DNA of 64,000 bases from Candidatus Parcubacteria bacterium (GCA_018664825.1 JABJNO010000002.1:14068-78067); one strand, 5' to 3'; shown: positions 14,050-56,559, numbered from the stretch's first letter. The notes: a model not told the origin generated them from the sequence alone. Program-made: numbers and translations.

Positions 14050-14598
14050 ATGAATGGCTTTGAAGGACAATCTAAAGAAAATGTATCTTATCCTGAAAAT
14101 TTGACCCCCCAGGATATAGCCTTGGTATATAGACAATGCGAAATCCAGCATGCTACCAGCGTCGAACAGCTAGAGGGTTTTGCCAATGCCTACTCCAAGG
14201 CCAAGGAGCTGGCTCAGACCCGAGAAAAATTAGACCAACTAACTCCAGAACAAATAGAAGGATTGATTTTGGAATTAGGAGCTTTGACAGAAAAAAGAAA
14301 TCAAAAAGGATTCCGGATTGTACCTGTCACATTTGCAAATGGCTCTCGAGCTATAGAGGCAGACAAAATTCCCCGAGCAATCCAAACATTTGCCCAGGGA
14401 TTCAAATCTTTTTTAGAAAACCCCACTGAAGATGAAAGATTAAATACTGTCTTGTTGTACAAACAATTTGAAGAAATCCATCCATTTGAAGATGGTAATG
14501 GTCGAGTCGGTGATCTTTTGTGGAAAATATTGGAAAGCAAAAAAACAAAACAATGGCCAGAAAAATTGCCACCAGACGTCTTTGGTGAAAACAAATAA
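14050..14598 (+). CDS. Fic/Fido-domain protein (short, 182 aa)
   Basis: Near-canonical Fic motif HPFEDGNGRVGD (HxFx[DE]GNGR) close to the C-terminus. The locus is locally GC-elevated. Confidence 0.6.
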   Translation: MNGFEGQSKENVSYPENLTPQDIALVYRQCEIQHATSVEQLEGFANAYSKAKELAQTREKLDQLTPEQIEGLILELGALTEKRNQKGFRIVPVTFANGSRAIEADKIPRAIQTFAQGFKSFLENPTEDERLNTVLLYKQFEEIHPFEDGNGRVGDLLWKILESKKTKQWPEKLPPDVFGENK

Positions 14599-14602
14599 AT
14601 AT

Positions 14603-15316
14603 ATGAATCAAGTAATCTGTAAAAAACTAATAAAAAACTTAGGTGAAGCCAAGACAATTGTAGGGAACTTTGATGCAACTAAGGTGGCCTCCACAAAATC
14701 TATAGAGGCTAGAAATAGATTGGTTTTTTTATTGGATGAAATAAAATTTTTATTATTGAACAAAGAGTTTTCTAAGCGATATCCTGGAGCCATGATAGAA
14801 AAAATAGACCCAAATAAAATTCCCTCGAACATAATGGATTCATTTGAACATCAAAGTACCATGTATATCCATCCCGATGATTATGAAAAAGGAAATTTTA
14901 TACAATTTTATATTATTCATCGGGTCGACCCTCCTTATACTACCTATGTAGCCGAACAAGATAAAATAATTGATAAAGATGAAAAAGAAGAGATGACTGA
15001 CAAGCTGCATTATTTTATAGATAACCCCGACGACCTGGGGGCCAAAAAGTTAGATGAAATTAGGTTTATCATAGACAATGATAGCTCTTATTTCAAAAAT
15101 AAACCTTTTACTTTTTTTTCAAAAAATGGCACCGATAGATTAAAACTAATGAATGCTTTTTGCCAATCAAGACTAGGACTACCTATGTACTCGGGTACTA
15201 TGTTAGAAGATGAAGAACATGAATTTTGGAAAGAGCTAGTAGAAGAAGGGCTAGCCCAACAATACGAAGAAGAGTCTGGAAGAGATTTAAAAACTAGATA
15301 CAAATTTAAAGATTAA
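14603..15316 (+). CDS. Hypothetical protein
   Basis: The ATG lies 5 nt after the Fic stop codon (the ORF-track N-terminal extension overlaps fic). Acidic C-terminus. No recognised domain. Confidence 0.45.
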   Translation: MNQVICKKLIKNLGEAKTIVGNFDATKVASTKSIEARNRLVFLLDEIKFLLLNKEFSKRYPGAMIEKIDPNKIPSNIMDSFEHQSTMYIHPDDYEKGNFIQFYIIHRVDPPYTTYVAEQDKIIDKDEKEEMTDKLHYFIDNPDDLGAKKLDEIRFIIDNDSSYFKNKPFTFFSKNGTDRLKLMNAFCQSRLGLPMYSGTMLEDEEHEFWKELVEEGLAQQYEEESGRDLKTRYKFKD

Positions 15317-18547: not shown

Positions 18548-20578
18548 TTATTGTTGAGATGGTCTAATACTTGGATCTACTGGATCCACCGGATCTATAT
18601 TGTCTAAGATATCTTTTAAGTCTGACCAATCATCTATACATTTTTTATCCAAACATAACTGACCAGTATTTATTCCTTGTTCTGTAAAAGTTACAGCATT
18701 GCTTCCGTGCCAAAAATTTAAGTTTCCAGATCTATTATCTTGATAAATCCCCCAATGAGTATTGTCTCCTGATTGCAGATCAATTTCTGCATTTTCTGTT
18801 TCAGAATATATATCCAATGTTCTTTCTGGATATGCTTTATTAATACCAATCTTTCCACTAGAGTGAGCTGTAAACAATGGTTTACTTGGTGCTCCAGGAG
18901 CATCGCTATCAGCCACTACTCTAAAAGCAGAAACAGGATCATCGTTGTTTGCGTCTATAGCTATTCCTACATCCAAAAATGAACTAATCATCAAACCGCC
19001 CCAACCACCACTGATTGGTCCAATTTTTGATTGATTACCTTGTCCAATTAATAGTTCTCCACCGTTGTCTACTAGTAAATCACCATCAAAGTAGCCTGCA
19101 TAAGAATTTTCCCCATTTGCCTTGGCATAAACTGCTAATGAATCATCGCCATTTGATTTAAACACACCAGCCTTACCACCAAGCACCTCTGTCTGGGCCA
19201 TAATAGCCGCACTATAAGGTCTACCTGTATCTGTTACTCCTAAGGCCGCTATTCCTGTTATTGGATTTCCTTCTATGGCAGATAAATTACCAATCATTAC
19301 ATCACCATCAAACCAACCAGCCCAAGCTCCACCCGTTGCATTAGCAATCAAGGCTTTACTATTTTCACCACTAGCAGAAAGAGCCGCTGCTGATGAACTA
19401 GCCGCGCCTACAAAGGAACTAAAGTTATTTCTATTTGGCTCTATTGTTCCTAATGTTATATGTTTTGCAAATAAGTCTTCTGTGAAATTGGCATCACTAC
19501 GGAAATACACAGCCTCAGCACTTGATTTTATATTGTCTACTTCTAGGTCTCCATTTGTTATTTTTACTGGCCCATCAAAAAATCCAGCCGTACTACTAGA
19601 GATAGCATACAAGGCTGTACCGCCCACACCATTAGCTTGAAAAAATCCAGCCTTGGCATCATTACCATTGGCGCCAGCACTAAGTGCTATACCACCTGGG
19701 TTTTCATCAAGGACTGTCAATCTACCCGGAAGAGCTGGGCCCATGTGCAGGTCCTCGGTTATAACTACACTACCATCGAACTTACCAGCTAGCTCTCCGG
19801 CAAAAGCCTGACCATAAACACCAATGCCGCCTGGATAATTGGCTACACCAAGCACACCAGTATGCCCAGATCCAAATAAACCTGCTCCACCTGTCTCACT
19901 TGTTGACCAACCACGGACAGCGTTGCCATATGCATGTACATTTAAACCTGTATCTCCTTCATAATCTATCTCAACTTGACCATCAAACTTACCAGCATAA
20001 GAATTATTACCATCCGCATGACCATAAATTGCATTTGAATCCTCAGCATTAGCATAGGCCATTATAGCATCTTGACCAAAATCTAGACCTACTGCGCTAA
20101 CGCGTAAAGCTCCTTCTTGAGCTGAATCATGAAAACTACCTATGGTGGCTCCATTTTCTACACTAAGAAAATTTTCCACTCCCCAGCTTCCGTATAAAAA
20201 ACTTTTTTCACTTGCTGAATTTGAAAATGAATAACCACCCAAGTCCAAATCGACCGTCATCGGATTGTTCACATAAGAACCAGGCAATGTATCTATACCC
20301 CCATCATCAATAGAAATTGAGTTGATTTGATTTTCTAAAGTGTTTATTTTCTTTTCTAAATCAGAGACATCCTTCTGAAGAACGCCAGTAGTATCAAGTG
20401 CTTCTACAGTATTGAGCTCCAAAGTACGAGCTATCCCAGCATTGTAGCCCTGATAATAACTGATTCTTTCTTTGTCTTTTGAACCAAAAAAATCTACCGC
20501 CAAACTTTGTTGTGGTAGAGACATGGTCACAAAAATAGTTAGAACTAAAAATGAATTAAATAATTTTGTGCCTTTCAT
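18548..20578 (-). CDS. Large secreted glycine-rich repeat protein (putative surface or fibre-like protein)
   Basis: N-terminal signal peptide, a coiled-coil segment (LEKKINTLENQINSI), five or more repeats of the form aGxFDGxVxI (YAGKFDGQVEI, LAGKFDGSVVI, TAGFFDGPVKI, WAGWFDGDVMI, YAGYFDGDLLV), and a C-terminal PVDPVDP tail. Confidence 0.6.
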   Translation of the reverse strand: MKGTKLFNSFLVLTIFVTMSLPQQSLAVDFFGSKDKERISYYQGYNAGIARTLELNTVEALDTTGVLQKDVSDLEKKINTLENQINSISIDDGGIDTLPGSYVNNPMTVDLDLGGYSFSNSASEKSFLYGSWGVENFLSVENGATIGSFHDSAQEGALRVSAVGLDFGQDAIMAYANAEDSNAIYGHADGNNSYAGKFDGQVEIDYEGDTGLNVHAYGNAVRGWSTSETGGAGLFGSGHTGVLGVANYPGGIGVYGQAFAGELAGKFDGSVVITEDLHMGPALPGRLTVLDENPGGIALSAGANGNDAKAGFFQANGVGGTALYAISSSTAGFFDGPVKITNGDLEVDNIKSSAEAVYFRSDANFTEDLFAKHITLGTIEPNRNNFSSFVGAASSSAAALSASGENSKALIANATGGAWAGWFDGDVMIGNLSAIEGNPITGIAALGVTDTGRPYSAAIMAQTEVLGGKAGVFKSNGDDSLAVYAKANGENSYAGYFDGDLLVDNGGELLIGQGNQSKIGPISGGWGGLMISSFLDVGIAIDANNDDPVSAFRVVADSDAPGAPSKPLFTAHSSGKIGINKAYPERTLDIYSETENAEIDLQSGDNTHWGIYQDNRSGNLNFWHGSNAVTFTEQGINTGQLCLDKKCIDDWSDLKDILDNIDPVDPVDPSIRPSQQ

Positions 20579-20684: not shown

Positions 20685-21947
20685 ATGGAAAATATAAACT
20701 CTACAGATCCAAAGATCGCTGAGATCTTGAAAAAAGAATTGGATCGTCAAAGACACGGAGCAGAGATGATTGCTTCGGAAAATTTTGTTTCCCCTGCTGT
20801 TTTAGAGGTTGCCGGCAGTGTCCTGACCAACAAATATGCCGAGGGCTACCCCAACAAAAGATATTATGGTGGCAATGAGTTTATCGATTTATCAGAACAA
20901 CTAGCCATCGACCGAGCCAAGGAGCTTTTTGGAGCCGAACACGCCAATGTCCAGCCTCATGCTGGTAGTCCAGCCAACGCTGAGGCATATTTTGCACTAG
21001 CTGAACTTGGTGATACCATCCTAGGCTTTTCACTAGCCCATGGTGGTCATCTGACCCACGGACACCCAGTCAATTTTTCAGGAAAATTTTATAACTTTGT
21101 TCACTACGGAGTAGACAAAGAAAAAGAGCTCATAGATATGAATCAAGTGCGTGAACTAGCCCTAAAACATAAACCAAAGATTATCTTGGCTGGAGCCTCT
21201 GCTTATTCTCGTAAAATAGATTTCAAGCCTTTCCGAGAAATCGCTAATGAAGTTGGTGCTTATCTGATGGTAGACATGGCTCATATCGCTGGACTAGTAG
21301 CTGTCGGTCTCCATCCTGACCCTGTACCATATAGTGATGTAGTGACAACGACTACTCACAAAACTCTACGTGGTCCAAGAGGGGCAATGATTTTGTCAAA
21401 AATAGAAGATAGATTAAATCCAAAAGACAAAAAAAACCTAGCTCAAAAAATAGACTCAGCTGTCTTCCCTGGTATGCAAGGCGGTCCGCTAGAACATATC
21501 ATAGCTGCCAAAGCAGTTGCTTTTGGCGAAGCTCTAAAACCAGAATTTAAAAAATATCAGGCTCAAGTAATCAAAAACTGTAAAGTACTAGAAGACAATT
21601 TTCGTGAAGCTGGTATCCGCATGGTCTCAGATGGTACAGACAATCACCTCTTGATGATCGATGTCAGTACTATAGGACTAGGTGGTAAAGAAGCAGAAAC
21701 TTTACTTGATAAAGTACATATCTTTACAAACAAAAATATGATTCCATTTGATAAAGGTACTCCGTTTAAGCCTTCTGGTATCCGCCTCGGTACTGCTGCC
21801 CTGACTACTCGTGGCCTCAAAGAATCTGAAATAGAACTTGTAGCCTCTGTCATGATAAAAACCCTAAAAGATAAAAAGGCAACTGACGAAAATAAAAATA
21901 AGATAATTGAATTGATGAAACAATTTGAATTGTATCCACAATTATAA
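20685..21947 (+). CDS. glyA: Serine hydroxymethyltransferase
   Basis: The N-terminal region matches the GlyA pattern; 420 aa. Confidence 0.9.
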
Positions 21948-21952
21948 AAAAT

Positions 21953-22798
21953 ATGAACAAAATGATTGATGGCAAAAAACTTGCCGAAAACATCCAGGTA
22001 GAAATAAGTAAAGAAATATTCCAAAAAGGCATCAGACCTAGTTTGGCAGTTGTTTTGGTAGGAGATGATCCGGCTAGCAGACTTTATGTAAACCTCAAAA
22101 AGAAAGCCAGTCAAAAAGTAGGTATTGATTTCCATGAATATCTTTTGGTCAAAAAATCTACCGAACAAGAAGTCCTAGAAACTATAGATTTTTTAAATAA
22201 AGACAAAGATATAGATGCTATATTGATTCAACTACCACTACCAAAGCATTTTGATACTGACAAAATCATCCAGGCTATGGATCCAGCCAAAGATGTCGAT
22301 GGATTTCATCCAGCTAGTATAAAAAAGTTTCTAAAAGGTCAATCTGGTTTTGTGCCGGGCTTGGCTCTAGGAATTTTTAAACTAATCAAAAGCACGGAAG
22401 AAGAACTCAAAGGTAAAAACGCTGTCATCGTAGCCAAGAGTGATATCCTCTACCAACCAGTAGCCAAATTACTAAACGATCAAGGTGTAGCTACCGCTAT
22501 TGTCCGTCCAGATGACAGAAACCTAAAAGACGAAACAATAAAAGCTGACATTTTGATAGTGGCTTGTGGTTCTCCATTTTTTATCAAAGAGGATATGGTC
22601 AAACAAGATTCTATTGTGATAGATGTGGGCACCAACAAAATAGACAATGATTATATTGTGGGTGACGTAGACTATACAAATGTATTCCAAAAGGCCAAAT
22701 TTATCACGCCGGTCCCAGGAGGAGTCGGACCAATGACCGTAGCAATGCTACTCTACAATACTCTCCAACTAGCTGAAAATAAAAAAACCGCCGAATAG
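21953..22798 (+). CDS. folD: Bifunctional methylenetetrahydrofolate dehydrogenase/cyclohydrolase
   Basis: N-terminus MIDGKKLAENIQVEISKEI and a FolD-typical length, 5 nt after glyA. Confidence 0.85.
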   Translation: MNKMIDGKKLAENIQVEISKEIFQKGIRPSLAVVLVGDDPASRLYVNLKKKASQKVGIDFHEYLLVKKSTEQEVLETIDFLNKDKDIDAILIQLPLPKHFDTDKIIQAMDPAKDVDGFHPASIKKFLKGQSGFVPGLALGIFKLIKSTEEELKGKNAVIVAKSDILYQPVAKLLNDQGVATAIVRPDDRNLKDETIKADILIVACGSPFFIKEDMVKQDSIVIDVGTNKIDNDYIVGDVDYTNVFQKAKFITPVPGGVGPMTVAMLLYNTLQLAENKKTAE

Positions 22799-22913: not shown

Positions 22914-23867
22914 ATGAGTGGCACTTTTGAGATTCATGTCTTACCTCGTCAGGTAATGACCCAGGAACAGTTTCTAAGCGAAACACCCCCATGTTCTATT
23001 GCTCTTGATGGAGTAGTGAGTGGAGGTCCCTACTTTGACCCAGTATCTCTCCACATCAACTTTGATCACCATGACAATGTGGTGCGCGAAGCTACGATGA
23101 GTACTGCCAAGCAGGTCTTTGTGGCTATCAAGGGTGGCTTGATGAAATCATTTCGTGAAGATGGTCGAGCTCATGCTCACATCTACATCAATGACACCGA
23201 TCAAGACACTTCTTTGGCCGTCTGGCTTCTGATGAACTACACCCTCTTTGAAGGTACACAAAGTGTACCCTTGATCAGTCGTATCCTGGACCTGTCCGAC
23301 AAGTGGGATATCACCGGCGGAGCATTTCCGGTCAACCTCAAAGAAGAAGTTGTCCGTCAACACAACTGGATTTTCGAGCCTTATTCCAATTTGCGTAAAT
23401 CTGGCCAATTGGCCAACGCTGACGCAGATGTAATGCGCGACAACCTGGATGCTGTGATGGCTCGCTTGACCAAGGCTATGATGGGCGAAGCTGGTGAAGT
23501 TGATCTCGATACTCGTCACGAAATTTTGTGTGATCATCCGATCTTCAAAATCGTTGATGAAATCGGTGGCAACGAAGCTCGCTACTACCTCTATAGCCAA
23601 GGCATGAATGCTTTTGTCAGCATCGTCGCCAGACGTGAAGACAAAAGTACTGTCTACGTAGTTGGTCGTCGCTCCCAATACATCCCCTTTCCTGTCAGTC
23701 AAATTCTGACTGCTCTAAACCAGGCTGAATTTGCCAAACGAGGCAAAGAGTTGGTTGAAGGTGACCAATGGGGTGGCTCCGATCTAATCGGAGGATCTCC
23801 CAGATCATCAGGCAGTGTACTGACCTGGGAAGAGATCAAGGATGTTCTGTTGAACGTTGTAGAATAA
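22914..23867 (+). CDS. Hypothetical protein (317 aa), compositionally atypical (GC about 47%)
   Basis: Uninterrupted ORF with its own promoter, SD and a perfect 10-bp terminator. No domain was confidently recognised by eye. GC is much higher than the flanking glyA/folD. Confidence 0.5.
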   Translation: MSGTFEIHVLPRQVMTQEQFLSETPPCSIALDGVVSGGPYFDPVSLHINFDHHDNVVREATMSTAKQVFVAIKGGLMKSFREDGRAHAHIYINDTDQDTSLAVWLLMNYTLFEGTQSVPLISRILDLSDKWDITGGAFPVNLKEEVVRQHNWIFEPYSNLRKSGQLANADADVMRDNLDAVMARLTKAMMGEAGEVDLDTRHEILCDHPIFKIVDEIGGNEARYYLYSQGMNAFVSIVARREDKSTVYVVGRRSQYIPFPVSQILTALNQAEFAKRGKELVEGDQWGGSDLIGGSPRSSGSVLTWEEIKDVLLNVVE

Positions 23868-23883
23868 TCTACACAAAAACAAA

Positions 23884-23920
23884 AGCGGGCTGGAAAAATT
23901 TCCAGCCCGCTCTTTATTTT
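23884..23920. terminator. Bidirectional intrinsic terminator
   Basis: Perfect 10-bp stem agcgggctgg/ccagcccgct, 8-nt loop, A-run before and T-run after. It lies between convergent genes. Confidence 0.75.
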
Positions 23921-24704
23921 ATAATAATGTATTTTGCCAACTATCCATCTTACCTCCCAGTTTGAGATCTTTTATCCTGTCAATATCAAACATTCTTATA
24001 GCCTGTCGGAGATGACAGTAGGCTTTTATTTTATTTCCGGTAATTCGCTGAACATCAATCTTTCTTGAGGTGGTTTTGCCTGATTCATCCATATACTCTA
24101 TTTCCAACTGATCACCGTCTTTGAGGGCATCATGGACTTTTTGCTCAACTGTCCGACCATTGTTGTTGCCCCAACGAGCAATTATCTTTTCTTTGTGTCC
24201 AGAATTTTGATACCACATATGACCATGCTTCAAACCATAATCATATACTTCTTTGGTGACTTTGACATCATCTAAACAATACCTTATCAGATTGTCCCAA
24301 TCTTCATTGCGGTAATACACGATAGCATCAAGACCAGAGCCAGATTTGCCATAGCCTAGTGTGCTCTGTGCTACACTCTCTAGTTTCAGTCTATGCCCCA
24401 AAGCATGAACTACTTCTTCCAAGATATCCAAGTGAGGTATAGTAGATAAATCAAAATCTTTGTAATATGGCTGAAGAGCGGTATTATCAAAACTCTTACT
24501 ATTGAAACCGATCAACAATTCTGTATTTTTAAATATCTCCAAAAGCTCCCCAAACTCCTCTTCTTTGAAAGCACGATATTGATCTCTATTATAAGAATAA
24601 ATACCAACCACGGATACTTCCATTTTATCAATATGATCATAACCACCGACCTCGTCAAAGGTCTTTTTGGTTTCTAAATCAAATACTATTTTATCTTTTT
24701 TCAT
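23919..24704 (-). CDS. PolB-type (DEDDy) 3'-5' exonuclease fused to a C-terminal WYL-like domain
   Basis: Exo I FDLET, Exo II GFNSKSFDNTAL and Exo III YCLDDV (YxxxD) are all present. The C-terminal ~80 aa (LEIEYMDESGKTTSRKIDVQRITGNKIKAYCHLRQAIRMFDIDRI) fit the WYL-domain core pattern (..WYLvAyc.lrg.fRtFrldRI). Confidence 0.55.
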   Translation of the reverse strand: MKKDKIVFDLETKKTFDEVGGYDHIDKMEVSVVGIYSYNRDQYRAFKEEEFGELLEIFKNTELLIGFNSKSFDNTALQPYYKDFDLSTIPHLDILEEVVHALGHRLKLESVAQSTLGYGKSGSGLDAIVYYRNEDWDNLIRYCLDDVKVTKEVYDYGLKHGHMWYQNSGHKEKIIARWGNNNGRTVEQKVHDALKDGDQLEIEYMDESGKTTSRKIDVQRITGNKIKAYCHLRQAIRMFDIDRIKDLKLGGKMDSWQNTLL

Positions 24705-24736
24705 AACGCATTATATTATAACAAAATTTTGAAAAA

Positions 24737-26794
24737 TTACCAGTTATCGACGTCAGGCAAGAAGCCATCGCTTCTTTCGTTTTTTTCATGATCCTCAAAA
24801 TCTCCATCGGACTCATAAGACACTCCATCACCACTAGCATAAGTAATATTCCTTGATAGCTCATTGTGATTCAAAAGATTGCCATCTATGTCTGATATAA
24901 AAATTGAAGGCTGCATGCTTTTGTGTCCATCAAATCTATAAACCGACATCGGATAAGTGAGATAGAGGTGCTTCATGGCCCTAGTGATAGCCACATAGAG
25001 CAATCTTCTTTCTTCTTCTTGCTCGTGTTCGGTCACAGCTAGTGGATGTGGGAAAGATTGAGTGGTCAAATTCATAATAAACACCGCTGGCCACTCCAAT
25101 CCTTTTGATTGATGGACTGTACTCAATACCACTACATCATTGTCCTGCTTTTGAGCCTGTCTGACTGTAAAATTTTCTTGCAAACTTACTTCTGTCAAAA
25201 ATGAGCCTAAATCATCATAAGATGAAGCAAAGGCCGCCAACTGCCCCAAATCATCTTCACGTTGATAATGATCGGGAAATTTTTCTATCAAATAATCTCG
25301 GTATTTTTCATTGACTGCTTTTATCAATTCTCCAATATTTTTTTGTTTTTGATGGAAAAGACTAGATAACACTTCATTTACCTTATTCCAACTTTGTGTT
25401 GCTTTTTCTGATAGTTTTGGTTTTACTCCTGGCAATTCCTCCAAAGTTTTTATCTGTGATGTTTCTGTAATTATTTTTTTAGCAGTTGCTGGACCCACTC
25501 CTTCATAAAGTTGCAGAACTCTTTGCCAAGATATAGCATCTTTATGATTATACAAAATCCTTAGCCAGGCTGCCACGTCTTTGATGTGTGCTCTTTCAAA
25601 AAATTTCAAACCACCGCGCATCTCATAGTCTATACCTCTTTTGTTGAGCTCCATTTCAAGTGATTGAGAATGGTGAGCTGCTCGAAATAATATCGCTATT
25701 TGTTTTGGTCTCAATCCATCAGCCATCAAGCCTTGGATCCTATCGGTAATCATGATAGCCTCTTCTATATTGTTGCGCACAGCTGACAACTCGGGCCTAG
25801 TATAACTAGGCAAAACAGCTGATAATTTTTTTGTAAATTGTTTTTTATTTTTAGATATAACATTATTGGCCAGATTCAAAATCTCTGGTGTAGAACGATA
25901 ATTTGTTTCTAGCTTGTGGGTTTTAGCATTTTTAAATTTTTTGGGGAAATCCAAAATATTTCTGATATCAGCCGCCCTAAAAGAATAAATACTCTGAGCA
26001 TCATCGCCTACTGCCAAAATATTTTGATGGCTTTCAGCTAGATTATAAACAATCTCCGCCTGGACTGTATTTGTATCTTGATACTCATCTACCAAGATAT
26101 AATCCCACTTGGCATCAAGGATAGGACCTATCTTTGGATGCTCAGTCAAAGTTTTCCAAAATGATAACAAGTCATCAAAATCCAAAAGACTATTGGCTTG
26201 TTTTCTTTTTTTGTACTCAGCTAGAACTTTTTCAAAAAATTCTACTATTGGTAGCCATTCCGGAAACTTGGCGTCTAGACTTTCCTCTACCTTGATACCT
26301 GAATTGATCGCAAAACTAATCACCTCGCTGATTATAGCTGGTGAGGGTTTACTTTTGTCTGGCAAATTTCCAAAAAGCTCTTTACTTATATTTTTGAGTA
26401 GAGTTTTTTTGTCTTCTTGATCCAAGATTGCAAAACCAGGTTCAACACCAATATGCTTTCCGTATATTCGAAGTAATCGATTGCCCACTGAATGAAAAGT
26501 ACCTCCCCAAAGAGAGAGTTTATTGTCCTTCTGTAAACCTATGAGATTTTTTACTCGCTCCATCATCTCGGCTGCCGCCTTGTTGGTAAAGGTGAGTAGT
26601 AATATCCTCTCTGGCTTGATACCTTGTTCCAAGAGCCAGGCCACCCGATAGGTCAATGTACGCGTCTTACCGCTACCTGCTCCTGCTAAAACCAAATGAG
26701 GCCCATCACCTGCTGTGACGACCTCGTGTTGTGCTGAATTTAGCTCTTTTTCAAAATCAATTTTAATCATAGTAGACATATTATAACCAATCAT
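24737..26794 (-). CDS. UvrD/PcrA/Rep-family ATP-dependent DNA helicase
   Basis: Walker A LVLAGAGSGKTRTLTYRVAWLL, a UvrD-like helicase C-terminal domain, 685 aa. The start may be the internal MSTMIKIDF at 26776. Confidence 0.85.
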   Translation of the reverse strand: MIGYNMSTMIKIDFEKELNSAQHEVVTAGDGPHLVLAGAGSGKTRTLTYRVAWLLEQGIKPERILLLTFTNKAAAEMMERVKNLIGLQKDNKLSLWGGTFHSVGNRLLRIYGKHIGVEPGFAILDQEDKKTLLKNISKELFGNLPDKSKPSPAIISEVISFAINSGIKVEESLDAKFPEWLPIVEFFEKVLAEYKKRKQANSLLDFDDLLSFWKTLTEHPKIGPILDAKWDYILVDEYQDTNTVQAEIVYNLAESHQNILAVGDDAQSIYSFRAADIRNILDFPKKFKNAKTHKLETNYRSTPEILNLANNVISKNKKQFTKKLSAVLPSYTRPELSAVRNNIEEAIMITDRIQGLMADGLRPKQIAILFRAAHHSQSLEMELNKRGIDYEMRGGLKFFERAHIKDVAAWLRILYNHKDAISWQRVLQLYEGVGPATAKKIITETSQIKTLEELPGVKPKLSEKATQSWNKVNEVLSSLFHQKQKNIGELIKAVNEKYRDYLIEKFPDHYQREDDLGQLAAFASSYDDLGSFLTEVSLQENFTVRQAQKQDNDVVVLSTVHQSKGLEWPAVFIMNLTTQSFPHPLAVTEHEQEEERRLLYVAITRAMKHLYLTYPMSVYRFDGHKSMQPSIFISDIDGNLLNHNELSRNITYASGDGVSYESDGDFEDHEKNERSDGFLPDVDNW

Positions 26795-26844
26795 TGATTT
26801 AATTACAAATATATGATTTAATTCTTGCGTTATACTATAAAATT

Positions 26845-51892: not shown

Positions 51893-54739
51893 CTATTGGC
51901 CATTCACCTTGTTCTTGGCTTCGGCTAATCGTTTTTTTGTATCCTCTATCACCTGCGGTGGTGCATTGCTGACAAATTTTTCATTGGCTAGCTTGGCTTC
52001 TGTATTTTTAATATATTTTTCCAGATCTTGTTTTTCTTTGTCTGACAATTCTTTGGTCAAATCTATAAATACCTTACTGCTGTTTATGGCTATTGGTTTT
52101 ACATTTACTTTTTTGTCCGTCAGATTGACCCTAGCCATCTTGGCGGCAAGTTCTAGATATTTTTTATCCAAAATTTTACTGTCCAAATTACAATCGGGAA
52201 ATTCAGTTGGCGGTATCTTATTTTCAGCTTTAAGATTTCTTAAACTTACTACCAGTTCTTTGAGTTCAGTAAAATTTGTAATTACATCCTTATCCACTTT
52301 ACCAGCTTTGGGCCACTCTTTGACCATCATTAATTCTTTTTCACCAAATTGCTCCCAAATCACTTCTGTCACAAATGGAATAAAAGGATGACACAAAACA
52401 AGGAGTCTTTCCAAAATATAAAGTAATATCTCTTCTTTGTCTTTTTCTATTTTAGAAATTTCTAAATACCAATCTGCCAAATCATCCCAAGTAAAATGAT
52501 AAAGCTTGGTACCTGCTTCTGAAAAATGAAATTTTTCTAAGTCCTCGCTTATTTCTTTTATAGTTTCGTTAAATTCAGACAAAATCCACTTATCAGCCAG
52601 AGTTTTTGCCCTTGGTTGTTTTTTGACTCTTTTGACGTTGTCTGCACTGGTAAAAATAAATCGAGAAATATTCCAAAGTTTATTTACAAAATTTCTATAA
52701 CCCGCAATCTTGTCTTCATAAAGTCGCATATCTGCTCCTGGTGCAGATCCAATGATCAAAGACAGACGAAGTGCGTCGGTACCAAATTTTTCACTCATTT
52801 TTATCGGATCTATACCATTACCCAAAGACTTGGACATTTTTTTGCCATCCTTATCTCGGATCATACCATGTAGATAAACAGTATCAAATGGCTTTGTTTC
52901 CAAAACATACTCTGTCATCATTATCATCCTAGCTACCCAAAAAAATAAAATATCATAGCCAGTCTCCATTACAGAGCTTGGATGAAATAAATCTAGATCT
53001 GACTTTTTACTATAAACAAAATCATAAGCCCATAAGTCCGTATTATCCGTAATATCCTTGTCTGGATAATATTTTTTGAATGTTTTTTTGAAATCATCTT
53101 TATCCTTATACTCTTCGTGACCCTTTTGTTTGGGATCTACATCTTTAAACTTAATTTTTTGAATATTGGTAATTTTTATATAACCAAAATTTTTCTTTGT
53201 CTGAGTATTTTCCACAACAATAGTTTCACCAATACTATATCCCTTATCTGCCAATCTATATGTTTTGGTTTTTTCTCCACTCTCTACTATCTTGACCAAA
53301 TCTTTATCAAGACCAATTTTGTTTTGTATTGGCCACCCCAAAGTAGAAAAGGTCCAAAGTGAAGATGAAAACCAAGTATCAAGAGTGTCTTTGTCTTGAG
53401 TTAGTTTTTTATTACCAGCTTTTTTGTTTGCTTCAGTTTCATTTGGAGCTACTATCACCTCTCCATCCTCGGTATACCAAACAGGAATCCGATGTCCCCA
53501 CCAAATCTGACGAGAAATACACCAATCATGAAGATTTTCCATCCAATGATAATATGTTTTATCAAATCGCTTTGGTAATATTTCTATATCCCCACCTTTG
53601 ACGGCATTGATAGCCAATTCTTTGAGGCTCTTGCCTCGGCTTGGAATTTTTTTGTTTACCCTGACAAACCATTGTTCAGAAGTAAGTGGCTCAATAGGAG
53701 TATCACAACGATAACAAATAGAAAGATTGTTTTTTATACTATCTATTTTTTCTATTTGACCTGCTTTTTCCAAATCAGCTACAAATTCTCTTCTGGCTTG
53801 CAAAACATTTTTACCTTTGTACTTGCCACCGGTTTTCATGATATGTCCAGACTCATCAATCAGTTTGATAATTTCCAAATCATGCCTTTGAGCAAGCTCA
53901 TAATCAGTTGTACTGTGAGCAGGGGTTACTCCCACTACTCCACTACCAAATCTTTTATCGATTTCTTTATCGGCAATGACTTTTACTTTTATCTTGTGTC
54001 CAGCCAGATCTATATCCAGCTCTTGCCCAACATATTTTTTGTATCTTCGATCACTCGGGTGGACAGCTACACCAGTATCGGCTAGTTTTGTTTCTGGTCT
54101 AGTCGTTGCCACTACAAATGGACCATATTTTATATAATATAGTTTAGCGTCTTGTTCTTTGTGTTCTACTTCATCGTCAGCTAGGGTAGAGGCGCAGCGC
54201 GGACACCAATTGACTATCCGATAATCCCTCTCTATCAAACCGTCGTCATACATTTTGACAAAAGCTTGATTGACCGCCTTTGATAAGCCGTCGTCAAAAG
54301 TATATCTTTCACGAGACCAATCACAACTAGAGCCCATCTTGCGAGTTTGTTTGCGGATGGTACCTTGTGAGCTAGCTACGTATTCTTTGACTCTGCCCAA
54401 AAACTTTTCTCGACCAAGTTTTTTTCTGTCTGTACCCTCGATAGCCAAAATCTTTTCTACCTTTGTCTGGGTAGCAATAGCCGCATGGTCAGTACCTGGC
54501 ACCCAAAGAGCCTTATCGCCCTTGAGGCGGTGGAAACGGACCATTAGGTCTTCGTAGGCCAAAGCAGCGGCATGCCCCAGATGCAAAATACCAGTAGCAT
54601 TTGGTGGTGGCATAGATATGACAAAAGGCTTCCCCTTGGCTTTGAGCTTGTCAGGATCAAAAAGACCAGACTCTTCCCAGGTCTTATAAATATCATCTTC
54701 ATATTTGGTTGGCTCGTAAGCTTTGGCTAATTCTTGCAT
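51893..54739 (-). CDS. valS: Valyl-tRNA synthetase
   Basis: HIGH region PPPNATGILHLGHA, KMSKS, and a C-terminal coiled coil. The start is set at the internal ATG (MQELAKAYEP), because the ORF-track extension runs through the leader terminator. Confidence 0.9.
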   Translation of the reverse strand: MQELAKAYEPTKYEDDIYKTWEESGLFDPDKLKAKGKPFVISMPPPNATGILHLGHAAALAYEDLMVRFHRLKGDKALWVPGTDHAAIATQTKVEKILAIEGTDRKKLGREKFLGRVKEYVASSQGTIRKQTRKMGSSCDWSRERYTFDDGLSKAVNQAFVKMYDDGLIERDYRIVNWCPRCASTLADDEVEHKEQDAKLYYIKYGPFVVATTRPETKLADTGVAVHPSDRRYKKYVGQELDIDLAGHKIKVKVIADKEIDKRFGSGVVGVTPAHSTTDYELAQRHDLEIIKLIDESGHIMKTGGKYKGKNVLQARREFVADLEKAGQIEKIDSIKNNLSICYRCDTPIEPLTSEQWFVRVNKKIPSRGKSLKELAINAVKGGDIEILPKRFDKTYYHWMENLHDWCISRQIWWGHRIPVWYTEDGEVIVAPNETEANKKAGNKKLTQDKDTLDTWFSSSLWTFSTLGWPIQNKIGLDKDLVKIVESGEKTKTYRLADKGYSIGETIVVENTQTKKNFGYIKITNIQKIKFKDVDPKQKGHEEYKDKDDFKKTFKKYYPDKDITDNTDLWAYDFVYSKKSDLDLFHPSSVMETGYDILFFWVARMIMMTEYVLETKPFDTVYLHGMIRDKDGKKMSKSLGNGIDPIKMSEKFGTDALRLSLIIGSAPGADMRLYEDKIAGYRNFVNKLWNISRFIFTSADNVKRVKKQPRAKTLADKWILSEFNETIKEISEDLEKFHFSEAGTKLYHFTWDDLADWYLEISKIEKDKEEILLYILERLLVLCHPFIPFVTEVIWEQFGEKELMMVKEWPKAGKVDKDVITNFTELKELVVSLRNLKAENKIPPTEFPDCNLDSKILDKKYLELAAKMARVNLTDKKVNVKPIAINSSKVFIDLTKELSDKEKQDLEKYIKNTEAKLANEKFVSNAPPQVIEDTKKRLAEAKNKVNGQ

Positions 54740-54749
54740 AATTTTGTTT

Positions 54750-54930
54750 AAAAAATAAAAACGCAAAATAATTGCGTTTAAGGGCCCAAAAAATTGGACG
54801 GTACCACCTTAATTTGTTCTTGATTTTGACGCTATAACGGGCGCACCCCGACAGGTTCTACCTTGGTTCTTCCTGCAGCTCTTCGAGTGACATGAATCTC
54901 GAATCAAACGCTTTTTATTTGATTATAGTA
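54750..54930 (-). promoter_or_regulatory. Candidate T-box riboswitch leader (Val specifier GUC) with intrinsic terminator, upstream of valS
   Basis: The minus strand reads AAAUUAAGGUGGUACCGUCC (54815-54796), matching the T-box consensus AAUUAGGGUGGNACCGCG. The upstream hairpin UUCGAG-AUUCAUGUCA-CUCGAA presents GUC followed by A. A terminator hairpin ACGCAA-UUAUU-UUGCGU plus a U-run (54777-54750) ends 11 nt before the valS ATG. Confidence 0.55.
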
Positions 54931-55388: not shown

Positions 55389-56432
55389 TTATTTTACTAA
55401 TTGCCAATTTGATTTTGGTTGCAAGTTAAAAATTTCTTTTCCTTGCAAAATGTCTGCTTGTTTATTTTGTATCTTATAGTATGCGGCAGCCGCTATCATA
55501 GCTGCATTGTCTCCTGTATATTTTATCTCCGGAAAAAAGAAAGGCATGTCCAATTTTTTTGCTTCTACTGATAATCTACTTTTTAGATTTGAGTTGGCAG
55601 CCACTCCTCCGGCCAACATAATAGACTTTACACCAAACTCTCCGACTGCCCTGATGGTTTTGTGTACCAATACATCAGTCACTGCCGTTTGAAAACTAGC
55701 GCAAACATCTTTGACATCTTTTTTGTTTATATTTTTCTTTTTCTCAAGTGTATAGAGCACAGCTGTCTTGAGTCCCGCTAAACTAAAGTCATAATTATCC
55801 TTATCCATCATTGGGCGAGGCAACTTATATGCTTTGTCATCACCCTCTTCTGCTAATCTACTGACTATAGGACCGCCAGGATAGCCCAGGTTCATCATCT
55901 TGGCTACTTTGTCATAAGCCTCACCAACGGCATCATCCAAGGTCTGTCCAATCAATTGATAGTCTCCATGTCCTTTCATCAAAACTAGCTCCGTATGCCC
56001 TCCTGAGACGATAAGTACTAGACTTGGAAAATATTTTTGAGAGTTTTTTACCAATTCATCATTTGATAACCAATTTGAATACACGTGTCCTTCCATATGG
56101 TTGATTGGCACCAAAGGTAATTTGTTAATATAAGCCAAGGTTTTGGCTACGGTCATACCCAAAAGCAAAGAAGTAATCAAACCAGGGCCACTTGTGACCG
56201 CTAGATAATCAACGTCCTTTAGCTTATCTTTACCAAGTGTGTCATCCACCAATGGGATAATAGTCTCCAGATGTTTACGAGCAGCTACCTCTGGTACAAC
56301 GCCGCCGTATTTTTTGTGTATGTCTATCTGAGAATAAATAGCGTTTTTCTCCAAAATCAAAGAATCACCACCACCCTCGATCTTGGCAACGGCTGTTTCG
56401 TCACACGATGATTCTATAGCTAATACTTTCAT
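55389..56432 (-). CDS. tsaD: tRNA N6-adenosine threonylcarbamoyltransferase TsaD
   Basis: MKVLAIESSCDETAVA N-terminus and the HMEGH metal site; 347 aa. Confidence 0.9.
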   Translation of the reverse strand: MKVLAIESSCDETAVAKIEGGGDSLILEKNAIYSQIDIHKKYGGVVPEVAARKHLETIIPLVDDTLGKDKLKDVDYLAVTSGPGLITSLLLGMTVAKTLAYINKLPLVPINHMEGHVYSNWLSNDELVKNSQKYFPSLVLIVSGGHTELVLMKGHGDYQLIGQTLDDAVGEAYDKVAKMMNLGYPGGPIVSRLAEEGDDKAYKLPRPMMDKDNYDFSLAGLKTAVLYTLEKKKNINKKDVKDVCASFQTAVTDVLVHKTIRAVGEFGVKSIMLAGGVAANSNLKSRLSVEAKKLDMPFFFPEIKYTGDNAAMIAAAAYYKIQNKQADILQGKEIFNLQPKSNWQLVK

Positions 56433-56559
56433 ATATACATTATAACAGATTTGATAATTTAACTGAAAAATAGCACCCTGTCAATGATGGCGCAAGGGCT
56501 TGTCCATAATCAAGTTTTGTACTATCATATACTATATTCAATTGGGTAAGCCCTAAAAT

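Follow-up and report, generated by a model that had tools for sequence, protein, structure and literature searches.

An uncharacterised exonuclease-WYL protein of Candidatus Parcubacteria, most likely a housekeeping DNA-repair nuclease

A stretch of 64,000 nucleotides (64 kb) from a Candidatus Parcubacteria bacterium, hereafter the window, encodes a 261-residue protein in which a DEDDy 3'-5' exonuclease domain is fused to a C-terminal WYL domain (Exo-WYL). This protein, as yet uncharacterised, is most likely a housekeeping nuclease for DNA repair and not a phage-defence device. The chances are about even that it acts as a clamp-recruited, WYL-assisted exonuclease on single-stranded DNA (ssDNA) in excision repair or 3'-end processing, possibly helping the helicase encoded beside it; the substrate would be DNA rather than RNA. 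Both open reading frames are present exactly as the initial annotation had claimed, with a UvrD-family gene of 685 codons lying 32 nt upstream of Exo-WYL on the same strand. The genes and their parts are as follows.

23919-24704, minus strand: Exo-WYL gene, 261 aa plus stop (ORF list; Pfam RNase_H_2 and WYL)
24165-24704, minus strand: DEDDy 3'-5' exonuclease domain, residues 1-180 (invariant columns, domain-only model, Foldseek, profile matches)
23949-24149, minus strand: WYL domain, residues ~186-252 (Pfam, profile, Foldseek, DSSP, residue conservation)
23922-23942, minus strand: disordered tail S-W-Q257-N-T-L260-L261-COOH, resembling a β-clamp-binding motif, [SN][WF]QxxL[LFI] (model, conservation)
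24737-26794, minus strand: UvrD/PcrA-like SF1A helicase, 685 aa as called (Pfam, NCBIfam)
24740-24766, minus strand: extreme C-terminus of the helicase, G-F-L-P-D-V-D-N-W, after an acidic linker (conserved terminal peptide)

The public record identical to Exo-WYL is [quoted passage not shown], and family members already bear the database name "WYL domain-containing protein". Separate homologue searches returned 653 and 2789 proteins sharing the two-domain architecture of RNase_H_2 and WYL, which places the fusion far above chance. Thousands of members occur in Patescibacteria and Omnitrophica, and protein identity across Parcubacteria is 56-83%. The nearest sequence relatives include stand-alone exonucleases of ~190 aa and the C-terminal domains of MrfA/YprA helicases. 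The initial annotation knew of no characterised protein of this kind, and the literature yielded no study that characterises the fusion; as an architecture, however, it is not new, given that a WYL domain fused to a "3'->5' exoRNase" has been listed (Makarova et al., 2014; PMC4012209). The fusion is previously recorded, yet uncharacterised.

All of the predicted exonuclease motifs (FDLET, SFDNTAL and YCLDDV) are found in the protein, providing D9-x-E11 in ExoI, N68-x3-F72-D73 in ExoII and Y142-x3-D146 in ExoIII. The residues D9, E11, D73, Y142 and D146 are invariant among 41 close members (alignment A1) and 32 distant members (alignment A2), and also across the wider exonuclease family (150 representatives, truncated fragments excepted). 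D93 and K120 are likewise invariant. Judged by motif set and conservation, the domain is a DEDDy (DnaQ-like) exonuclease of the 3'-5' type, as had been proposed. The further label of "PolB-type" holds for the modelled fold but not for the formal family. A domain-only model (pLDDT 93.8) found its best Foldseek matches in the PDB among archaeal PolB proofreading domains (top entries 5mdn, 4ahc, 5vu8 and 7b0f; E about 1e-6), with Pyrobaculum, Tgo, KOD and 9°N PolB matching at TM 0.64-0.69 and rmsd ~3.5 Å. Pol epsilon, RB69, HSV and T7 were also structural matches, and profile matches were obtained to T7 DNAP (3e-4) and, weakly, to Pol delta (2e-4) and Pol II. The ExoI/II/III motifs are common to these proofreading domains, including N-x3-F-D and Y-C-L-x-D (YCLKD in Pol delta). 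Unlike them, the Exo-WYL module is free-standing, with 180 residues and no polymerase domain. Its formal family is RNase_H_2 (PF13482; residues 28-156, 42.4 bits against a gathering threshold of 22, E=9e-11), and the match to DNA_pol_B_exo2 (PF10108), the family of PolB-related predicted exonucleases, stays below threshold (14.1 bits, gathering 24). A precomputed PF10108 match exists for the Omnitrophica homologue P0327.

The C-terminal WYL domain is confirmed, its family by Pfam and its predicted fold by modelling. Pfam WYL (PF13280) matches residues 188-248 with 36.2 bits, above the gathering threshold of 21.8 (E=6e-9). In the AlphaFold2 model of the whole protein (pLDDT 90.7, pTM 0.88), residues 186-252 form a helix and then a five-stranded Sm-like barrel (DSSP: H186-196, E198-205, E211-222, E225-230, E235-240 and E244-252; block pLDDT 83-95). 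Foldseek with the barrel part returned the WYL domains of PafBC, CapW and BrxR at probability 1.0, and profile comparison matched it to PafBC (6sj9, E=2.5e-4) and aligned it with the WYL domain of a Pif1-type protein (8bnv). The literal W-Y-L tripeptide is absent from the protein, where a degenerate N224-K225-I226 aligns with W-Y-F of PafB. Its absence is not disqualifying, given that DriD (NYL) and CapW (WHV) also carry degenerate forms of the motif.

The conserved residues of this domain are Y204, R214, R233, R237, F239 and R243. Among the 41 close members Y204 is kept in all, R214 in 40, R/K at 233 in 40, R237 in 39 and R/K at 243 in all, and each of these five positions is retained in 20-30 of the 32 distant members. 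Contact residues aligned with them include DriD Y168, and R464, R491, R495 and R501 of DdPif1 align with R214, R233, R237 and R243, respectively. Tyr and Arg equivalents of the residues that hold ssDNA in DriD, CapW and Pif1 are therefore retained, which is consistent with ssDNA binding by the WYL domain of Exo-WYL. The signature has decayed in some sub-lineages (e.g., P0121, P0123, P0131 and P0142).

A parallel is offered by those Pif1 helicases that end in a WYL domain (Thermotoga elfii, Deferribacter; PDB 8bnv), which are also DNA-processing enzymes with one such C-terminal domain and without HTH or WCX. For full activity TePif1 needs its WYL domain as an accessory module that binds ssDNA (10.1101/163188), and the same role in Pif1 has been described elsewhere (PMC9964779). 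The catalytic partner is a helicase there and an exonuclease here. The wHTH-WYL-WCX regulators (PafBC, DriD, CapW and BrxR) have a homologous barrel and bind 3-4 nt of ssDNA via conserved Tyr/Ser/Arg residues. Exo-WYL differs from them in having no HTH match (Pfam) and no WCX dimerisation domain, with only about 9 residues after the barrel, and in lying outside defence or damage-regulon contexts; its output would be catalysis or substrate tethering and not transcription. WYL domains in other proteins bind RNA (PMC6547453) or c-di-GMP (PMC11880434). By analogy with Pif1-WYL, an accessory ssDNA-binding role is most likely, and the sensor function first ascribed to the domain is the less likely reading.

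Beyond the barrel the protein ends in a short tail with a clamp-like motif, which the initial annotation had missed. Bacterial β-clamp-binding motifs (CBM) follow QφxLF (10.64898/2026.05.27.728225) or QφxLxL, are usually C-terminal and disordered, and have positions 1, 4 and 5 as the critical ones. Residues 258-261 have pLDDT <50. Counted from the C-terminus of close homologues, Q occupies position -5 in 120/120, L position -2 in 119/120, and L, F or I position -1 in 120/120, in agreement with CBM positions 1, 4 and 5 in 119 of the 120; position 2 is polar (N/K/T/G), not aliphatic. Of the close members 119/120 carry the strict form Q-x-x-L-[LFI]-COOH, as do 10/32 distant Exo-WYL proteins and 8/54 stand-alone forms, so that it recurs in stand-alone relatives <50% identical; the counts are 0/9 for MrfA-fused forms, 0/119 for Omnitrophica proteins and 0/570 for background ORFs. 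From this pattern, the tail probably docks into the β sliding clamp.

The neighbouring helicase matches Pfam UvrD-helicase (259.1 bits) and UvrD_C (195.7 bits). The NCBIfam pcrA model (TIGR01073) scores 485 bits, under its equivalog cutoff of 911, and is matched over positions 3-642 of 725 only; the helicase therefore lacks the C-terminal Tudor-like domain, in place of which it carries an acidic tail. The tails of 22 syntenic orthologues end in [FYI]LP[DES][VI]xx[WL], and an unlinked UvrD (locus L061) ends in a canonical Tudor-type sequence. Since homologues align only from residue 9 onward, translation may in fact begin at M9 (26770). Three non-coding features accompany the two genes.

26780-26808, minus strand: promoter-like site upstream of the helicase, TTGTAA-17-TATAAT (consensus scan, 10/12 matches; a consensus match only)
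24705-24736, minus strand: helicase-exonuclease spacer, 32 nt (sequence)
23881-23914, both strands: strong bidirectional intrinsic-terminator-like hairpin, 15-bp stem, 8 GC (terminator scan of both strands; sequence)

In the close clade, 16/16 genome loci and 5 metagenome loci have the helicase gene directly upstream of Exo-WYL in the same orientation, usually 7-52 nt away and without a terminator between them. Conservation of this adjacency is confined to that clade (at least ~52% identity), and in the inspected loci of relatives it is absent around most distant Exo-WYL members. Insertions of 0.5-3.2 kb split the two genes in L005, L010, L011, L017, L018, L025 and L026. At L070, an Exo-WYL protein of 36% identity is paired independently with a different UvrD-nuclease fusion. 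A block of YchF, UvrD, Exo, FolD and SHMT genes is syntenic throughout the close clade, and for that reason the helicase adjacency may be mere inheritance.

The spacer contains an extended -10-like element, TGTTATAAT, at 24715-24723, and a second TATAAT that ends 5 nt ahead of the Exo-WYL ATG, with no Shine-Dalgarno sequence and no terminator found in its 32 nt. The arrangement TTTGTTATAAT + 6-7 nt + ATG is kept in L001-L004, L006, L008, L012, L016, L019 and L022, with TAAAAT variants of the element in L010, L011 and L021. The window contains 14 copies of TGNTATAAT, where 6.0±2.4 would be expected. The spacer element may thus act as a promoter, with a leaderless start of Exo-WYL. Directly past the Exo-WYL stop, the terminator-like hairpin is common to a convergent gene of 317 aa. 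Since the exonuclease has a conserved -10 element of its own, co-transcription with the helicase is not required. The proposed helicase-nuclease module is lineage-specific, favoured by adjacency in the close clade and weakened by its absence around most distant members, by the insertions and by this element. Cooperation of the two proteins is suggested by a gene order seen in one clade only.

The recurrent partnership of this exonuclease module with 3'-5' helicases is seen in its relatives P0201-P0269, in which the same module is fused to MrfA/YprA repair helicases (DEAD, Helicase_C, WHD_HRQ1 and MZB). MrfAB is a repair pair (PMC11194089; PMC12458937), and MrfB (YprB), the nuclease of this mitomycin-repair pair in B. 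subtilis (PDB 8UN9), is comparable to Exo-WYL in several respects. Both belong to RNase_H_2 (PF13482); MrfB works with a 3'-5' helicase, or in relatives is fused to one, and the closest non-WYL relatives of Exo-WYL are the C-terminal domains of MrfA/YprA helicases. MrfB has a long αC helix and a fold nearest to PolB-type proofreading domains (PMC11194089). However, it is a DEDDh enzyme with His258 (PMC11194089), in contrast to the invariant DEDDy Y142 of Exo-WYL. It also has a long N-terminal extension that docks MrfA, whereas in Exo-WYL β1 begins as early as residue 4; its C-terminal TPR domain contrasts with the WYL domain of Exo-WYL, for which Pfam gave no TPR match. Its partner is the SF2 helicase MrfA, and the neighbour here is an SF1 UvrD/PcrA. 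Sequence similarity to 8UN9 is weak with profile A3 (E=0.71, 12.3 bits), and profile A1 gave no match. No MrfA homologue was found in the window by tblastn. E. coli UvrD with ExoI/ExoX, acting in mismatch repair excision, likewise pairs a 3'-5' helicase with DEDD-type nucleases that digest the unwound strand in the 3'-5' direction, and WRN, with its helicase and DEDDy exonuclease, follows the same pairing logic. Mismatch repair factors typically bear clamp-binding motifs (QLSFF in MutS), to which the Exo-WYL tail is similar in kind. In contrast to these nucleases, Exo-WYL comes from another DEDD subgroup and has the WYL domain in addition.

The evenly weighted model of a clamp-recruited repair exonuclease would work as follows. 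The DEDDy domain would use two-metal catalysis by D9, E11, D73 and D146, with Y142 positioning the water, and the Sm-like barrel of WYL would hold 3-4 nt of the substrate strand and not a small molecule. Binding of the tail to the β clamp would bring the enzyme to primer-template junctions, nicks and gaps. Its neighbour, the cell's UvrD/PcrA-like helicase without a Tudor-like domain, translocates 3'->5'. The most probable task of the exonuclease would be degradation of the strand peeled off by this helicase in excision-type repair (post-incision NER or mismatch-type excision); alternatively, blocked or mispaired 3' ends may be trimmed. UvrC and RuvB are also encoded in the window.

The fold nearest to polymerase proofreading domains and the clamp-binding-like tail would also suit a clamp-tethered, extrinsic proofreading subunit of the replicase in these reduced genomes, analogous to DnaQ/epsilon, whose WYL domain grips the frayed primer and to which the helicase is incidental. 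E. coli epsilon also pairs a clamp-binding contact with its exonuclease domain (PMC9690074), and both the identity across Parcubacteria, as expected of a core replication factor, and the gene's own promoter-like element would fit. This reading is unlikely, however: no link to dnaE or polC was seen in any locus inspected, many relatives do without the WYL domain and the tail, and the MrfA-fused relatives favour repair over replication. Somewhat less likely still is scavenging, in which imported or turned-over ssDNA or oligonucleotides are degraded to mononucleotides (NrnC/diDNase- or ExoI-like) in hosts without de novo nucleotide synthesis. Nucleotide and one-carbon genes recur beside the family in varied orientations (SHMT in 26 loci, FolD in 18, NrdR in L049/L050/L053, a purine-nucleoside-phosphorylase-like gene in L011/L020), RNR, dCTP deaminase and OGG lie near Omnitrophica members, and a YkuK-type RNase H-like gene adjoins in 17 loci; these associations are possibly inherited synteny. 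By profile a "diDNase ancestor" (E=0.022) and nanoRNase C (E=0.29) were matched only weakly and without significance, polymerase proofreading domains rank ahead, and NrnC is not in the Foldseek top 50. A clamp-like tail and an ssDNA-binding-type WYL would be ill-suited to a dinucleotidase.

A role in RNA maturation or decay, as an RNase D/T-like 3'-5' exoribonuclease whose WYL domain binds single-stranded RNA, is improbable, even though RNase D and NrnC are themselves DEDDy enzymes, ssRNA is bound by WYL1 of type VI-D CRISPR (PMC6547453) and, weakly, by DriD, and the label of Makarova et al. (2014; PMC4012209) names an exoRNase. Against it, DNA polymerase proofreading domains give the best matches by both structure and profile, fusions to DNA repair helicases occur among the relatives, the adjoining gene encodes a DNA helicase and the tail resembles a DNA-clamp motif. 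The least probable reading is the defence role that the initial annotation had raised, whereby WYL would sense ssDNA from phage replication or a nucleotide signal and switch on the exonuclease, forming with the helicase an anti-phage module reminiscent of Gabija. WYL is indeed an allosteric ssDNA sensor in CapW, BrxR, DriD and PafBC, and in PADLOC the C-terminal domain matched WYL models with 48.7 bits and the helicase matched GajB models with 334 bits. However, GajB models match any UvrD-family helicase, the PcrA model scores higher, and the PADLOC matches at the locus are generic WYL and UvrD-like ones only. Gabija (GajA and GajB) was rejected, given that no GajA, the OLD-family ATPase/TOPRIM nuclease, was found by PADLOC among the neighbours tested (YchF and Exo-WYL flank the helicase), nor does any other defence gene adjoin. 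The window and all inspected loci of relatives are housekeeping contexts in which no mobile elements were found, the family is highly conserved and syntenic across the phylum, unlike patchy defence genes, and HTH and WCX are absent. A WYL-nuclease fusion is not automatically defence-related.

A broader proposal, which we regard as doubtful, is that this hitherto unrecognised, free-standing PolB-proofreading-like exonuclease is the principal extrinsic nuclease for 3'-end editing or mismatch excision in Patescibacteria and, in modified form, in Omnitrophica. Tethered to the clamp by its C-terminal QxxL[LF] peptide and with ssDNA held by WYL, it would replace DnaQ, ExoI or ExoX; in Parcubacteria the Tudor-less UvrD, which has a conserved terminal peptide of its own (…FLPDVDNW), would serve it as a dedicated motor.

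Little is known of DNA replication and repair in Patescibacteria (CPR) and Omnitrophota, huge lineages whose members are mostly uncultured and have minimal genomes. Exo-WYL is among their better-conserved proteins and carries generic names only. If the model of a clamp-recruited repair exonuclease is true, Exo-WYL would be a new member of the bacterial clamp interactome and would represent a new accessory use of WYL, in which the domain tethers the substrate of a nuclease; the precedent set by Pif1 would then reach past helicases and regulators. For these reduced genomes, Exo-WYL would further supply a concrete candidate enzyme for proofreading or 3'-5' excision.

Exo-WYL is best described as a DEDDy exonuclease that carries WYL as an accessory domain. 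As the initial annotation had stated, its gene and that of the helicase directly upstream are co-oriented and separated by a spacer of 32 nt:

23919-24704, minus strand: Exo-WYL ORF, 261 aa
24737-26794, minus strand: helicase ORF, 685 aa
24740-24766, minus strand: helicase terminal peptide GFLPDVDNW, conserved across linked orthologues

Pfam matched RNase_H_2 (PF13482) to residues 28-156 of Exo-WYL (42.4 bits, threshold 22) and WYL (PF13280) to residues 188-248 (36.2 bits, threshold 21.8), in the C-terminal region where a WYL domain had been proposed; PF10108, a model of PolB-related exonucleases, remained below threshold (14.1 bits versus 24). The three DEDDy motifs quoted at first reading are present, and the catalytic residues (D9, E11, D73, Y142 and D146) are unchanging in 41 homologues, invariant in 32 members with identity as low as 32%, and, across the 150 top-ranking representatives of the broader exonuclease family, kept in practically every full-length sequence. 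In the AlphaFold2 model built from the alignment (pLDDT 90.7, pTM 0.88), residues 186-252 fold as a helix followed by five β-strands, and Foldseek matched this region to the WYL domains of PafBC, CapW and BrxR with a probability of 1.0. The family profile also reached PafBC (E=2.5e-4) and aligned with the WYL domains of Pif1-type ATPases (8bnv/8bns).

The label 'PolB-type' is fair as a structural description, because both fold and profile matches lead to DNA polymerase proofreading domains, but not as the curated family, which is PF13482. When the exonuclease domain is modelled by itself (pLDDT 93.8), its nearest structures are archaeal family-B DNA polymerase proofreading domains (query-normalised TM 0.64-0.69, rmsd ~3.5 Å), followed in the ranking by Pol ε and the RB69, HSV and T7 polymerases. 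The best PDB sequence matches of a broad exonuclease-only profile were yeast Pol δ (E=2e-4) and T7 DNA polymerase (E=3e-4), with the N-x3-F-D and Y-C-L-x-D motifs aligned. An exhaustive profile search over 1.84 billion representatives identified 3453 relatives of the exonuclease module, which occurs with WYL (~255-290 aa), alone (~175-215 aa), with N-terminal extensions, or at the C-terminus of proteins of 920-1180 aa. The latter carry DEAD, Helicase_C, WHD_HRQ1, MZB (MrfA Zn-binding domain) and RNase_H_2 domains in Pfam, an architecture that identifies them as MrfA/YprA helicase fusions of the kind described previously (PMC12458937). All relatives, including the long fused forms, are DEDDy.

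PF13482 includes MrfB/YprB, the exonuclease of the Bacillus subtilis MrfAB mitomycin-repair pair; MrfB is closest to PolB-type DEDDy proofreading domains, yet is itself DEDDh, has an extended N-terminus and carries a TPR domain at the C-terminus (PMC11194089). Exo-WYL, in contrast, has Tyr rather than His at the catalytic position, lacks both the extension and the TPR domain, and has no MrfA neighbour, whereas MrfB pairs with MrfA; no MrfA helicase gene was found in the window. The full-length family profile did not reach MrfB in the PDB and the exonuclease-only profile matched it weakly (8UN9, E=0.71), so strict MrfB membership was rejected. Because of these differences, Exo-WYL is classified as a DEDDy cousin within the MrfB superfamily and not as an MrfB orthologue, the superfamily kinship being retained because of PF13482 and the MrfA fusions.

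The WYL domain has N-K-I where the literal W-Y-L would stand, a degeneracy also seen in DriD (NYL; PMC9186387) and CapW (WHV; PMC11662680). The WYL barrels of DriD, CapW, PafBC and Pif1 bind 3-4 nt of ssDNA with no base specificity via conserved Tyr, Ser and Arg residues (PMC9186387; PMC11662680; PMC9964779). Of the basic WYL residues in Deferribacter Pif1 (R464, R491, R495, R498 and R501; PMC9964779), four correspond in the profile alignment to R214, R233, R237 and R243 of Exo-WYL, and DriD Y168 corresponds to Y204. Among the 32 distant members, between 20 and 30 retain each of the five Exo-WYL residues; the counts for the close clade are:

Y204: 41/41
R214: 40/41
R233: R/K in 40/41
R237: 39/41
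R243: R/K in 41/41

Pfam found no HTH or WCX domain in Exo-WYL, so it is not a transcription factor. The best precedent is Pif1-WYL, in which WYL is an accessory ssDNA-binding module required for full enzymatic activity (10.1101/163188). The WYL signature is decayed in a few sub-lineages, and forms with and without WYL intermingle in a rough neighbour-joining tree built on the exonuclease module (no support values), which suggests that the domain is helpful, yet not essential to core activity.

The C-terminal tail, missed by the initial annotation, provides a further candidate element. Residues 258-261 are disordered in the model (pLDDT <50), and despite this Q257 and L260 are invariant in the 41-homologue alignment. 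Among 120 close homologues, Q occupies position -5 in 120/120, L position -2 in 119/120 and L/F/I position -1 in 120/120, with an aromatic residue at -6 in 118/120. The bacterial β-clamp-binding motif, QφxLF (consensus QL[S/D]LF), is mostly C-terminal and its critical positions are 1, 4 and 5 (10.64898/2026.05.27.728225; PMC9690074). The Exo-WYL tail fits at these three positions, but its position 2 is polar (N/K/T/G); because of this, reading it as a clamp-binding motif is a strong lead rather than a demonstration.

Occurrence of the strict tail pattern, Q..L[FLI]-COOH
Close members: 119/120
Distant Exo-WYL representatives: 10/32 (loose pattern 15/32)
Stand-alone exonucleases: 8/54
MrfA-fused forms: 0/9
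Omnitrophica members, ending IPPDFVPTAISE: 0/119
Unrelated ORFs from the same loci: 0/570

The ending [SN]L[ST]LPF, which resembles the hexapeptide type, occurs in several further stand-alone forms. In Omnitrophica (loci L099-L102) a different conserved tail, IPPDFVPTA[IV][SA]E, replaces QxxL[LF].

The neighbouring helicase is a UvrD/PcrA-type SF1 protein (UvrD-helicase 259 bits, UvrD_C 196 bits). Conservation of the gene order holds in the close clade: the helicase lies upstream on the same strand in all 16 genome loci that include upstream sequence (18 genome loci in all), within a syntenic block YchF<- | UvrD-> Exo-WYL-> | <-FolD <-SHMT, and five further metagenome loci of this clade agree. 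The spacer is usually 7-52 nt. The order does not hold around most distant members (33-43% identity), which mostly have neighbours other than UvrD, and insertions of 0.5-3.2 kb part the two genes at seven loci (L005, L010, L011, L017, L018, L025 and L026). Large genes inserted between UvrD and Exo-WYL (L010:2893-5976, L011:3202-5979, L013, L020; L017:5111-5968, L018) are of two types, c13 (~925-1027 aa, Cys-rich, secreted-looking) and c35 (~280 aa, acidic, low-complexity, membrane-anchored).

Transcription signals also bear on this arrangement. In the window, a promoter-like site lies 5' of the helicase and a strong bidirectional terminator right after Exo-WYL; the terminator scan found none in the gap between them. 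Within the spacer, an extended -10 element, TTTG-T-TATAAT, is conserved in at least 10 loci, ending 6-7 nt before the Exo-WYL start codon, and TAAAAT variants persist even where kilobase insertions intervene. From this element, Exo-WYL is probably transcribed from its own promoter into an mRNA with no leader or almost none; transcripts reading through from the helicase are also possible. TGnTATAAT is enriched in the window (14 observed versus 6.0±2.4 expected), and extended -10/TATAAT elements end just 5-10 nt before three start codons, which hints that leaderless mRNAs may be common in this organism:

56439-56447, minus strand: element of TsaD (55389-56432)
24715-24723, minus strand: element of Exo-WYL
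26780-26785, minus strand: element of the helicase, if M9 is the true start

An obligate UvrD-Exo operon was rejected, given the other neighbours of distant members (80 metagenome loci) and the conserved private -10 element; whole-block synteny and the insertions weaken it further, and the adjacency may simply be inherited with the syntenic block. Three observations nevertheless speak for cooperation between the two proteins: fusions of this exonuclease module to a 3'-5' repair helicase recur, an independent pairing appears to exist, and the linked helicases are distinctive. The pairing is at L070:2842-6801: a 36%-identical Exo-WYL gene is immediately preceded there, across a 243-nt gap, by the gene of a 970-aa UvrD-like helicase whose Cys-rich C-terminus is PD-(D/E)XK/Cas4-like. 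None of the linked helicases has the canonical Tudor-like domain at its C-terminus (in the window helicase, the match to the pcrA model stops at position 642 of 725), and orthologues in L001-L026 have an acidic tail with the conserved end [FYI]LP[DES][VI]xx[WL]-COOH; an unlinked UvrD in L061 retains the Tudor-type end.

Public data already contain the exact protein, annotated as hypothetical, from a Candidatus Parcubacteria MAG. Its 120 best-matching homologues, full-length proteins of identical architecture at 56-100% identity, all come from Patescibacteria, and a second search, started from a high-GC member of 43% identity, returned 2789 further proteins, the named ones being "WYL domain-containing protein" entries of Candidatus Omnitrophica. 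Loci of the family range from 28 to 68% GC. Four MAG records titled 'uncultured Gammaproteobacteria' (L011, L014, L015, L016; 28-43% GC) carry the Patescibacteria-type YchF/UvrD/Exo-WYL/FolD/SHMT block, and these bins are probably taxonomically mislabelled. Omnitrophica Exo-WYL genes neighbour PmbA/TldD, SelR, ribonucleotide reductase, dCTP deaminase and OGG, with no UvrD nearby; in L099-L102 an MBL-fold gene (Lactamase_B_2 / Anti-Pycsar_Apyc1-like) follows by 2-5 nt.

The 64-kb window is housekeeping throughout, encoding UvrC, RNase J, aminoacyl-tRNA synthetases, Mdh/Ldh, MurI, SHMT, FolD, YchF, glycosyltransferases, QueA/QueH, RuvB, GyrA, FtsH, PilB, TsaD/E and GlmS. Rfam and tRNA scans found only a tRNA-Glu, distant from the Exo-WYL locus. 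Convergent with Exo-WYL is a 317-aa ORF (22914-23867, plus strand) with no Pfam, NCBIfam or PADLOC match; it is 82% identical to a gene upstream of UvrD in L002 and missing here in most relatives, where FolD abuts Exo-WYL instead. A 957-aa valyl-tRNA synthetase (51893-54766, minus strand) has an ASCH domain (PF04266, residues 487-569) inserted within catalytic tRNA-synt_1. A 676-aa protein rich in Gly, Ala and Ser (18548-20578, minus strand) bears a signal-like sequence at its N-terminus and has no Pfam or PADLOC match; a 32%-identical relative lies near the syntenic block in L004. At 14050-15316 (plus strand), overlapping ORFs of 182 aa (partial Fic/DOC match) and 282 aa (no match) may be one Fic-family gene, frameshifted or mis-called.

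The mechanism proposed for Exo-WYL is that of a housekeeping ssDNA 3'-5' exonuclease whose WYL barrel would grip the substrate strand and whose C-terminal peptide would bring it to the β clamp at primer-template junctions, nicks and gaps. In the Parcubacteria clade, it would probably degrade the strand displaced by the adjacent helicase during excision-type repair, and may also trim 3' ends; UvrC and RuvB are encoded within the window. This mechanism as a whole is credited with roughly an even chance. The same proofreading-like fold could instead serve a replicative proofreader acting in trans, which is considered unlikely.

A nuclease scavenging ssDNA or oligonucleotides, judged quite unlikely, would be in keeping with weak diDNase and NrnC matches and with the recurrence of SHMT, FolD, NrdR, RNR and PNP as neighbours. 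SHMT and FolD, at 20685-22798 in the window, lie 1-4 genes from the exonuclease gene, with or without WYL and in varied orientations, in L049, L050, L053, L054, L056, L057, L063, L064, L069, L074 and L077, with NrdR in between in L049, L050 and L053; this recurrence may either reflect a link to nucleotide metabolism or go back to ancient synteny. Scavenging would also suit a YkuK-type 'RNaseH_like' gene (PF04308, 158.6 bits; ~164 aa) that is a direct, co-oriented neighbour of the exonuclease gene in distant relatives (17 loci), downstream of Exo-WYL (L031, L037, L047, L052, L059, L097) or upstream of an exo-only gene (L054, L062, L063, L069, L071, L074, L077, L079, L084, L085, L088); the 64-kb window has no such gene. 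An exoribonuclease, the label given by Makarova et al. (PMC4012209), is very unlikely. The defence role suggested initially for the helicase and Exo-WYL did not survive, and a ligand-gated or defence nuclease is the least probable reading: PADLOC gave only generic WYL matches for Exo-WYL and, for the helicase, the GajB matches that any UvrD-family helicase gives, with the PcrA model higher (485 bits); no GajA is adjacent, and Pfam found no defence or mobile genes among nearly all window ORFs.

The combination of exonuclease and WYL is already catalogued (PMC4012209; database names), and no characterisation of the fusion was found in the literature searched, in line with the initial annotation; searches on CPR DNA repair and CPR dnaQ found nothing specific. 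As far as the searchable literature shows, what is new comprises the PolB-like structure and kinship to MrfA-fused exonucleases, the spread over Patescibacteria and Omnitrophica, the private extended -10 element, the clamp-binding-like tail, and the partner helicase, Tudor-less and ending in a peptide of its own. Interest in Exo-WYL would rise if clamp tethering or proofreading were confirmed.
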